Positions 81-24,500 of a DNA stretch of 64,000 nt are shown piece by piece. This stretch comes from Curvularia clavata. Its lineage: Eukaryota. The position numbers and the translations under genes were made by a program. The notes under the pieces were generated by a model. The model did no database searches, was not told where the DNA came from, and saw only the letters and a list, made by a program, of their open reading frames with translations. Location: the NCBI GenBank assembly GCA_023920165.1, contig CP089275.1, positions 2,976,001 to 3,040,000 on the forward strand. The letters are read 5' to 3'. Numbering within the stretch: the stretch's first letter is position 1; each line of letters opens with the position of its first letter.

Positions 81-296
81 GTATGTTCTCTTCCGTTGGA
101 CCCTTTCGTTGCGCTTCGTCTAGGCCATGGCCTCATCACTGCCTGTCCACTCTGGAACATGTCTGGCAACCTGCACCTGGTCTGGTACCTTTTGCAGCTG
201 GACCTACAACTGTTTCATTGTCTCGTCTGGGATTTTCCAGCCTCCTCACTCCTGCACCACTGCCATTGTTCTTTTCACTGACTCCCCACCTTTCAG
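81..296 (+). other. Probable 5'UTR intron of the Myb gene
   Basis: GTATGT donor at 81, CTGAC branch at 278-282 and TTTCAG acceptor ending at 296, upstream of ATG 388. Confidence 0.5.
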
Positions 297-387: not shown

Positions 388-1596
388 ATGGTTGCTCATC
401 GACGCGGCCCCTGGTCGCAGCACGAGGACCAGTGGCTTGTCAACCTGGTAGCCCGCAATGGACCCCACAACTGGGTACGAATTTCACAAGAGATCGGTTC
501 CCGATCACCAAAGCAGTGCAGAGAGCGTTATCACCAGAACCTGAAGCCCTCATTAAACCACGACCCAATCACCAGTGAAGAGGGTGAACTGATTGAGAAG
601 ATGGTGGCCGAGATGGGTAAGAGGTGGGCCGAGATTGCTCGACGGTTAAAAGGCCGTAGCGACAACGCTGTCAAGAACTAGTGGAACGGTGGCCAGAACC
701 GCAGAAAGCGAAACCCAGAGCGTCCTGATCAAAGATCCCGCGACCACATGCACCACGCTCAGCCCGGTTTCCATTACCCACTCCCCCACAGCCTTCCTCA
801 CCACGAGGAGCACCACCACATGCAACCCCGCCACGACCAACAACGACACGACTCACACCGACCGTCGATGCACTCACCACACTCCCTCAAGCTCCCCCAG
901 CCCCAGCGATTTGAGCCTTACCCAGCACCCCGACCACAGCCCCTCGACCTCGCCACCTATGGATCCCACGCAGCTGTCCGGGCACGAGGCTTTGAAACGC
1001 CCATGCCCTCACCTTCCGGCTACTCTATTGTATCGGCTGATGGTGCTCCTTCGCTCATCACTGACACTGGCTCAGAGTCAAGGTCTCCCCGAGGCGCAGC
1101 ATCTCCTCCAGAGATGACACTCGCCCCTCTCGTCGGCAGTCGGGACGAGCGTAAGAACTCCAGCACCCGCTATCTCCCCACGTCTGGCTTCGCACCCGAG
1201 GACGACTCTGCTAGCGATGCGTACAGACGCCGTGGTTCTCTGCAGCTGCCTCCTCTACACCGCAACGATACCCCCTCCTCCAAGACAGCACCCACATTTC
1301 GTGAGCCCAACTACGAGCGCCCGCAGCCACCACAACTCCTCACACAGCCTACTCCTCAGCTTACACACCACCACTCAATGCCTCAGTCTGCGCCCACCAG
1401 TGTTCCACAGCGGCCACTGCCTCCTTTCCACTCGCTTGCCGAGCCAAGGCTGCCTCTACCCCACCCCAACAGCGCGAGTACCAGTCCAGCCTCGAGGCAA
1501 CTGCCCTCCCCTTACGCACTGCCGTCAATGCCGGCAGAAGCAAGGAGCGCACCTGTCTCACCAAAGGACCGAATGTCTCTGCGGAACATCATGTAG
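388..1596 (+). CDS. flbD: R2R3 Myb transcription factor, FlbD-like, interrupted by one in-frame TAG at 679-681
   Basis: HRRGPW...NWVRIS...RSPKQCRERYHQNLKPSLNHDPI...WAEIARRL..RSDNAVKN*WNG matches FlbD-type Myb repeats (normally KNWWNG). ORFs 388-681 and 748-1596 are in the same frame with no other stop, giving 402 aa if read through. Confidence 0.85.
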
Positions 1597-21541: not shown

Positions 21542-24500
21542 CTAGATTGAGCACATGCCTCCTCTCAAGTCATCCACAATATCGAGCTTGCTCTTCACCG
21601 GTCCCAGACTATCGTATTCTGACTTCTTCATCCCTCGCCTCGATTTCGCCGCACTCCTGAACCCACCCCGTCCTACTCCCGCACCAGCAAGAGCGCTAAA
21701 GACAGTCATGAAAGCGTTGTCTGGATCCTTAACTACGCCATACACGGTAACTGCAACGTCTCCTACCGTGCCGATAAGCCTGGCAATGGTTCGGATGGCA
21801 GTGAGGCCGGCTGCGGCTTCGCCAGCAAAAGGAATGAAGAACAGGAGACCCATGATGAAGTTGAGGATAAACTCTTCGCGCTCCGCCTTTTTGATTTCAT
21901 CGGCCTTTTGTACAATCTTCTCCATAGCTGAGATGGCTTCCTCGGTAGAAAAGGCTGGTAGCGACATCGCATCGACGAGGTCGGATTCGGTGATTTGCTC
22001 GTCCCAGATACCTGCAATCGCCATGTCTTGGAAACGGTACAGCATATCCTGGGCCTTTGGGTATGAATCGCCAATGATATCCTTGGGGTTGTAGATTTTA
22101 ACCTTGTCTCCGTTCATCAAGGGGTAGTTCTTGAAGTAGTTGTTGTTCCATTCGATGCAGTTCTTGACGTTCTCGCCGGCATACTGACAGCCGTTGTTGA
22201 TGCGCATCAAGCGCTTGCCCATCATGATCCACTCTTTTTCGATGCCCCAGGTCTCGGCGAGATCGTTGTAAAAACCATTCTCATCCTTCAAGGTGAAAGT
22301 TGCGTTGGGAATATAGTCGCTGCTGATCGTGCCTTTCTCAAACTCCATCTTAGGACACTTATCCATGGGATACTCGCCCTTTCCGCCCTTGCAATCGGAT
22401 CCCTTGATGCAATTCTCGATACAGGTAGCATATCGGCAGTCCTTGCAGCACGTTCCTTGATTCTTGTAATCCGAGCAACTGAAGTACTTGTCAACTTTAT
22501 CGCTTGCCATGAAGTTGTTGATCTGATCGGGAATCTGGTCCTTCACGTATTGGGCATAGATCTTGAACTTGTCGTCATAACCCTTGTCGACTAGATCCTT
22601 GTACTTCTTGAGTGCTCCATCGAGAACGGATATCTGGACGTCTGTGATGTACTGCTCCATGCAATGGCTGGGAATCGATCCTTTGCGGTCTTTCAACTGG
22701 TCCAGCGAGTTGTACTGGCCCTCGCAATCAGCCCAGTAGTTTTCGTCGATAGGCATTTCGTAGTCCTCGGGCTCATCCGTTCTATGATGGATTAGCAATG
22801 TTCAAAGTGACAGTTGGTAGAGAACTTACCCATGCCAATCTTGCAGATCCACTGCCCAGTCTGTGGTTCCGGCGAAGTTGTACGAGTCATAGAACTTCGA
22901 TCGAGACTCCTTCATATCGTTGTCCATCCAGGCGACCCACTCTGTGTTATTAAAGACCATGATGTTTGAACCTTCCTTTGTGTATTTCTTGTTGACGTTA
23001 CCCGTATCAATGATCTCTTGAATCTCGGCGTTGGAAATGTAACCACCGGTGTTGGTGCATCGGCCTTTGTAGGCATCGGAAACTCGAGGCGATCCAGTGA
23101 ACAAACAGCTCTCGCCGTCACATCCAGCTTGTGCCATCTTGAACGACCGACCATAACTGGAAACGCCGACGACCTGTATATATGTCAGCGTGATTGTCTC
23201 TATGTCACCTGCCACAATATTGCTTACCACTTTGCCGGAGTCAGCTCCAGCTTTAGTAATCATTGAGAGCGCGTCCTTAGTCTCAGTCTCATTGACATGA
23301 GATCTCAAGCAATTTCCGGTCTCACATCCGGGTGAAGTCCATTTGTTACCATAATCCCATTGGCCGTGCAGATCGTACGTCATGTATACGATGTAGTCGA
23401 GGGCCTTGGCCATATCCTTGATAGGGAAGGATCTCAGGTACCAGTATGATGCGGGTGCAGCAAACGAGACCGACTTGGAAGATCCAAAGGAAGTCTTGAG
23501 GCTAGAAAGTAGACGGTAATAGTTGACACCATTGACAGGGTCATCTTTCGGAATGTCAGGAATGTCAGGAGCCTAGAAGTCATCATGTCAGCATGTTCAT
23601 AATAGCGATTGATCAGATACTTACTCCGGGGTATTCCCAGTCAAGATCGACTCCATCGAGCCCATGCTCGTTAACGAAGCTGATGATGTTGTTCTTGAAC
23701 GTGTCGCGGTTGGCTGGTAGAACGGCCTCACGTAAGATCTGGAAGGTTCCAGGCTCAGTACTGAAAGCCCAACCACCAAAGGAGATGATTCTTTTGACGT
23801 TTGTGAGCTTTTTGAAGCTTTCAAACTCCCTCAAAGTCTGCTCATCGGTAATTTCAGGCTTGTATGTTCCTCGCGTAACGTTTGCGAAGGCAAAATGAAC
23901 GTGCGTGTACCCCTCGGGAACGGATGTGACTGGCATGTTCAAGCATGGACGATTGTAATTCCAGCTCTCGTAGTATGCGATTTTGATCTTTTTCGCCGGT
24001 GCGGTACCTTTGATGATGTCTCTACCGCAGTTGCTGATACCTAACGACAGTCAGTATGTTTTGTAAAGTACAGATGGGGCGAGTTACATACATCCGTTCT
24101 TGCCAGGGGCAGATGTTCCCGGAGCACCAGTTTCAGACTTGCTCACAACGCAAAAGTCGTCTGTCATACCACACTGGCCCCAGACGTTGCAGCAAACGTT
24201 CAATGGACAAGGGTTTAGCATGCTGATGTTGAAAGACCCGGATGGCTGTACGGTTCCATTCTTTGTGGGTCCGCAGACAGCGTTCTGTGGCGTTGTGCAT
24301 TAGCAAAAGAAGTAGGTATGCAAGCGTGAATGGAGAAAATCATACCGGAACAATGGCCGGCATGGGTGGTGTGCCCTTGCTGACACACATCAAAAAGTTC
24401 TCATAGAACACCTCCGGTTTGCAGCCATTCCAACCCCAAGTGTTCTTGTTGAATTCCATAAGATCGTCAACGGTGAGATCGCGAGCGACGGCAACCTTCG

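Follow-up and report, generated by a model that had tools for sequence, protein, structure and literature searches.

A premature TAG codon in an FlbD/BZcon1-type Myb regulator gene of Curvularia clavata is very probably a recent, strain-private nonsense allele

Background

FlbD of Aspergillus nidulans, reportedly characterized by Wieser and Adams in 1995, is said to be an R2R3 Myb protein that acts as an upstream activator of conidiophore development. Among the Pleosporaceae, a described member of this family is BZcon1 of Cochliobolus carbonum (Bipolaris zeicola), which was cloned by mapping and, according to the available part of the report, comprises an ORF of 1209 bp that encodes 402 amino acids and is intron-free by cDNA; BZcon1 knock-out strains produce no conidiophores or conidia, whereas growth and mating are normal (PMC4132175). 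The same report describes a C. carbonum field isolate, S129, that is aconidial and in which a 126-bp promoter deletion silences transcription at the BZcon1 locus, the coding sequence being identical (PMC4132175). FlbD is also required for peridium formation, whereas BZcon1 is dispensable for mating (PMC4132175).

A different kind of fungal gene with a premature stop is represented by the PSC genes of Fusarium graminearum, such as PUK1 and AMD1, in which a genomic TAG stands at an ancestral TGG within an otherwise intact ORF. In the available portions of the literature, these stops are described as fixed in the species, often conserved across species, and connected with the sexual stage in Sordariomycetes (PMC10776026, PMC5496914, PMC11156358). 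One of these studies deleted the 63 premature-stop genes that remained out of a total of 71 and, as far as the accessible text goes, found all of these mutants normal in asexual stages; 18 of the 71 genes have roles in sexual development (PMC10776026).

Here, we describe an interrupted gene of the FlbD/BZcon1 type in a 64,000-nucleotide stretch of the Curvularia clavata genome (assembly GCA_023920165.1, contig CP089275.1, positions 2,976,001 to 3,040,000 of the forward strand), hereafter the window, to which all coordinates refer. Like BZcon1, this gene belongs to a member of the Pleosporaceae and consists of a 1209-bp, intron-free ORF for 402 amino acids with two N-terminal SANT/Myb repeats; unlike BZcon1, which is intact in sporulating strains, the window copy is stopped at codon 98. 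The likeness to A. nidulans FlbD is one of family and of names, close homologs having been named FlbD by JGI. As in S129, the locus carries a loss-of-function allele of natural origin, in a strain taken from the wild or kept in the laboratory, but the S129 lesion is a promoter deletion, whereas that of the window is a nonsense codon with a phenotype that is predicted only. The lesion is closest to that of the non-sporulating C. carbonum field isolate, with a different mechanism, and is a known kind of natural loss-of-function allele. Like the F. graminearum PSC genes, the window gene has a TAG in the place of the ancestral TGG, with the ORF otherwise intact; in contrast to them, its stop is private to one sample, the gene acts in asexual development, and the host is a Dothideomycete. 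We conclude that the TAG very probably reflects a very recent G-to-A transition that converted Trp98 from TGG to TAG, is private to the strain from which the window comes, and presumably constitutes a null allele of the FlbD/BZcon1-type regulator.

Methods

Contigs built from public reads (Logan) of four samples, designated X1, X2, X5, and X9, were compared with the window over positions 1-2400. The same search of public runs also brought up X3, X4, and X13 from other organisms (0.79-0.87 of words shared) and the metatranscriptome X14 (0.62). Read-derived contigs drop rare variants and show presence, and the nuclei of X1 or X2 may be mixed for A and G at position 680. Related loci in metagenomes were searched for with six patterns, one of which contains WW and favors TGG, and the other five of which are independent of codon 98. 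Because these five patterns lie elsewhere in the protein, a TAG form would have been found.

Results

An FlbD/BZcon1-type Myb gene interrupted at codon 98

The gene and its parts are arranged as follows.

81..296, plus strand: 5'UTR intron of 216 nt, GTATGT..TTTCAG, with a GT..AG joint from 79 to 296 (cut +1) in the RNA contigs X5 and X9; the DNA contigs X1 and X2 are unspliced here.
388..1596, plus strand: flbD/BZcon1-type Myb regulator gene, a 1209-bp intron-free ORF interrupted at codon 98; the RNA contigs X5 and X9 are unspliced across the ORF.
403..702, plus strand: R2R3 Myb DNA-binding domain, residues 6-105, delineated by Pfam and by alignment to c-Myb (1H88, 1H8A, and 1MSE).
679..681, plus strand: premature TAG at codon 98, with A680 as the mutated base; relatives have TGG (Trp).
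1594..1596, plus strand: natural stop codon, also TAG, behind the C-terminus ...SLRNIM that is common to all full-length homologs aligned.

Positions 673-690 of the window read AAG AAC TAG TGG AAC GGT, and the TAG at 679-681 is in the same frame as the ATG at 388 and the natural stop. The stop-to-stop ORFs 328-681 and 682-1596 adjoin in this single frame, and reading the TAG as Trp yields a protein of 402 residues (P0002), near the N-terminus of which Pfam PF00249 matches in two stretches, the two Myb repeats (E 9.3e-26). Residues 6-105 of this protein match R2R3 of c-Myb in 1H88 with an E value of 2.7e-27, and the alignment places DNAVKN-W98-W99-NGG of the window on DNAIKN-H-W-NST of c-Myb. 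Judged by this alignment, the premature stop cuts the third, DNA-reading (recognition) helix of the second Myb repeat, one residue ahead of the conserved Trp. An earlier note on this DNA, made from the letters alone, had reported an in-frame TAG in the Myb recognition helix (K-N-stop-W-N-G) between two halves that are intact and in frame; the sequence, the Pfam match, and the c-Myb alignment confirm the former, and the abutting ORFs, which give 402 residues with both Myb repeats once the TAG is taken as Trp, bear out the latter. A functional member of the family has an intact ORF, which the TAG at codon 98 denies to the window copy; this copy is a broken member of the FlbD/BZcon1-type family.

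Homologs and selective constraint

The 402-residue protein aligns without gaps to a Bipolaris zeicola protein of the same length (P0130), with 375 of the 402 residues identical (93%); from its species and length, we infer that P0130 is the BZcon1 protein. The top full-length homologs are Pleosporales proteins of about 400 amino acids, including those of Bipolaris sorokiniana (93% identical) and Stemphylium lycopersici (90%), and many close homologs carry the JGI label "Myb-like DNA-binding protein FlbD." A Trp occupies codon 98 in all 11 aligned homologous proteins that cover this position. The comparison of the orthologous codon that the earlier note had called for gave the same answer at the nucleotide level: codon 98 is covered in 79 of the 80 related metagenome loci and is TGG in 79 of these 79, and G is also found at position 680 in X2, X5, and X9 of the same organism.

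The closest metagenome locus (L001), which is 98% identical to the window at the amino acid level and 90% at the nucleotide level, reads TGG. Between the window and this locus, dN/dS is 0.026 for the whole gene, 0 for the part ahead of the stop, and 0.033 for the part after it. Since the ratio is about 0.03 behind the stop, this part of the gene shows no decay and, to judge from the substitutions, the same strong purifying selection.

Several further sequences were encountered in these searches. Two Logan proteins, P0131 and P0132, were considered as the intact form from the same species and rejected, as their identity to the window protein is no higher than 93% and 91%, respectively; at the majority of variable positions, P0132 goes with an Exserohilum protein (P0123). 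A 258-residue JGI model (P0086), which starts at Met145 on a 1374-nt contig, differs from the window protein at 3 positions (99% identity); its DNA is absent from the 80 metagenome loci, and its upstream part might hide the same stop. The metagenome that contains L001 also holds a second gene (L054, 3001-3306) with a Myb domain that is 82% identical over residues 1-102 only; this gene probably encodes a Myb regulator paralogous to L001 in that fungus. An exact look-up in the protein collection returned the public 376-aa model only, and the 97-aa N-terminal product, two products from later Met codons, and the read-through 402-aa protein were all absent from that collection.

The base at position 680 in public reads

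From the DNA sample X1 (organism A), a contig of 46,733 nt was obtained at a depth of 89.8 that is identical to the window at all 2400 bases compared, including A680. X1 may be the source of the window itself, in which case it proves that the assembly is faithful to the reads, not that there is a second TAG-bearing sample; the A allele is represented by one sample. The DNA sample X2, from another study of organism A, is identical to the window at positions 1-1923 except for A>G at 680; the description of X1 and X2 as near-identical is valid for the 2400-base stretch only. The X2 contig retains the 5'UTR intron and has much the same depth in the gene (47.7) and in the intergenic sequence (44.6), both of which identify it as DNA. 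Thus, at position 680, where the earlier note had wished to see genomic reads mapped, the read-derived contigs give A in one sample and G in the other.

Two minor features of the X2 contigs were observed. At the C-run at 2211-2217, the X2 contig is one base shorter than the window and X1, which is either a real difference or a homopolymer error. At 1894-1978, X2 is represented by short broken contigs, with minor variants at a depth of 3.5-5.5 beside the main depth of 54-56; these are either errors or a minor subpopulation.

The samples X5 and X9, from two further studies of organism A, have G680 at depths of 165.3 and 209.7, respectively, and are identified as RNA by splicing at 81-296. Besides G680, their main pieces differ from the window in 8 (X5) or 10 (X9) other letters; the six other coding differences are all synonymous and in the third codon position. 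The differences other than G680 fall into several classes (A>G, T>C, C>T, G>A, and C>A), which indicates that X5 and X9 are of a third lineage and that their G680 is a genomic allele, not a product of editing. The RNA contig of X9 (3170 nt) covers the entire 3' flank past position 2400, and that of X5 stops at 2004; the extension of X9 past the gene could be a long 3'UTR, read-through, or an overlap with a neighboring transcript.

Taken at the level of samples, the stop is present in the X1 reads and absent from the near-identical DNA sample, from the third lineage, and from all relatives examined. The suggestion in the earlier note that the TAG might be a strain-specific null allele is supported by this distribution, with TGG in the relatives and in near-identical DNA of the same organism. 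The mutation could have originated either in nature or during culture.

Alternative explanations for the stop codon

The RNA of X5 and X9 is that of a TGG lineage, and editing, readthrough, and cryptic splicing in the TAG strain are argued against rather than observed to be absent. Five explanations other than a strain-private nonsense allele were weighed on this basis.

If the TAG were a sequencing or assembly error, the strain would truly be TGG, and two observations are compatible with this: X2, a possible source of the window DNA, has G680 and is otherwise identical over 1-1923, and X1 may consist of the very reads behind the assembly, in which case it is not independent of it. However, the Logan contig was built separately from the X1 reads, and it carries A680 at the mean depth of 89.8, with no other letter in the 2400 bases. 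At this depth, a substitution error is very unlikely, and the assembly error that had been raised as one of the initial options is accordingly an improbable explanation.

Correction of the stop by A-to-I editing, such that UAG becomes UGG in the mRNA at some developmental stage and the regulator is made only then, was the reading that the earlier note favored. If editing did operate in the TAG strain, it would mark the first case of a stop corrected by editing in a Dothideomycete, and it would have been caught as a harm-permitting mutation emerges in the population. In line with this proposal, the TAG stands in place of an ancestral TGG, a U precedes A680 at -1, and fungal ADAT-based editing is described, in the available part of a 2024 review, as preferring UAG (PMC11156358). 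Every UAG, however, has U at -1 and G at +1, so the fit to the motif, which had been cited in support, is uninformative. On the DNA side, the proposal failed: TGG is found in all relatives examined, and the stop is not fixed, with G in the near-identical DNA sample and in the third lineage of the same organism. Nor do the RNA contigs speak for editing, because G680 in X5 and X9 is accompanied by other changes (C>T, T>C, G>A, and C>A), as expected of a strain allele.

The local RNA structure and the role of the gene also speak against editing. In the folds predicted for 61 nt and 101 nt, A680 pairs with U669 in a stem, and in the 31-nt fold it would be unpaired, in a loop; the fold z-scores of +0.58, -0.11, and -0.07 are no better than those of shuffles, and these models suggest no special hairpin. 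As covered by the accessible text of the review, A-to-I mRNA editing has been described from Sordariomycetes and one Pezizomycete (Pyronema) and was not found in A. nidulans or Botrytis cinerea, and that text makes no mention of Dothideomycetes (PMC11156358). A literature search on A-to-I mRNA editing in Dothideomycetes, conducted on the parts of publications that were available, yielded no report, only work on Fusarium. Finally, BZcon1 is required for asexual sporulation but dispensable for mating; a correction restricted to the sexual stage would leave the gene off where it acts. Altogether, editing appears to be an extremely unlikely explanation of this stop.

A further possibility is that the stop is spliced out, and this is how the gene is treated in the public annotation.

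604..681, plus strand: "intron" of the public model, 78 nt, GTGGCC..CTAG, corresponding to the absence of V73-W98 from P0133; judged to be an annotation artefact.

The deposited Curvularia clavata protein USP75509.1 (P0133, 376 aa) matches the window protein exactly save for a 26-residue gap, V73-W98, which corresponds to bases 604-681, so that the model removes a 78-nt segment that ends exactly on the stop. Splicing at these sites would produce that 376-aa protein, with 26 residues fewer, and the sites themselves exist: GT at 604 and AG at 680-681 are 78 nt apart, and the frame is kept. The AG acceptor is created by the G-to-A change itself and is present only in the TAG allele, so that the RNA contigs of TGG strains cannot serve as a test; X5 and X9, both TGG and without this acceptor, have the 5'UTR joint only and none at 603/682. 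Against splicing, the donor is poor, GTGGCC being far from the fungal donor consensus GTAAGT/GTATGT, and a better donor, GTAAGA at 617, would lead to a 65-nt skip, a frame shift, and a stop after 16 codons. Moreover, V73-W98 makes up the greater part of the second Myb repeat, and a product lacking these residues would be deprived of FlbD-type DNA binding; in the orthologous BZcon1 cDNA, the ORF is intron-free. The statement in the initial description that intron signals are lacking is therefore roughly right with regard to the poor donor and the absence of supporting RNA, although it overlooked the AG acceptor that arises from the mutation and is used by the public model. Functional rescue by splicing is, in our assessment, exceedingly improbable.

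Readthrough of the UAG, if it yielded enough functional full-length protein, would also restore the regulator, and a low level of readthrough is possible at any stop. To our knowledge, however, the UGG AAC that follows the stop matches no recognized readthrough context, and where UAG is decoded by near-cognate tRNAs, the residue inserted is usually Gln, Tyr, or Lys, not Trp. An allele that is private to one sample also argues against a programmed mechanism, and we consider sufficient readthrough to have very little likelihood.

The proposal that the change is a footprint of RIP, which was suggested by the minus-strand change from CpA to TpA, the dinucleotide change that RIP prefers, can be given hardly any credence, because RIP targets duplicated sequence, in which it leaves numerous transitions, whereas there is a single change in 1923 bases compared with X2, GC is 0.549 in positions 1-2000, and every 2-kb bin of the window has a GC of at least 0.455.

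Predicted consequences of the nonsense allele

Under the preferred explanation, a strain-private nonsense allele, translation would end after 97 residues, and the product would lose one half of the recognition helix in the second repeat together with the whole 304-residue C-terminal part. Such a 97-residue product would be expected to be unable to bind DNA. The stop lies about 915 nt ahead of the normal one, and the mRNA would probably also be lowered by nonsense-mediated decay; a truncated product combined with the probable loss of mRNA would render the allele null. By analogy with the BZcon1 knock-out, which is aconidial, the TAG strain is predicted to form few or no conidia. A literature search on the strain name retrieved a remark on assembly completeness only and no description of a phenotype.

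The surrounding window

The rest of the window is an ordinary fungal chromosome, with genes for MTC6, RRG7, Serinc, GH18/LysM/WSC proteins, Sec5, a mitochondrial carrier, and others; a tRNA scan of the window found no tRNA genes. A group of ORFs at 21542-32743 encodes GH18 chitinase, LysM (two), and WSC domains, an arrangement that is frequent in fungal chitin-related or effector loci. The homolog of the exocyst subunit Sec5 (33468-36375, minus strand) is contained in two adjoining ORFs in different frames that match Pfam positions 28-613 and 620-837, and this split is better explained by a short intron at about 34220-34233 than by a break.

Conclusions

With this mutation, the natural lesions known at the BZcon1 locus in the Pleosporaceae are of two kinds; the value of this finding is mainly practical, and no new biology is implied. 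The well-assembled public genome of Curvularia clavata is that of a strain with a presumed null allele of a master regulator of asexual sporulation, and its annotation hides the stop in an invented intron, resulting in a 376-aa protein without most of one Myb repeat. Caution is warranted in the use of this strain and its protein set in studies of development, in inoculum production, and in comparative genomics.
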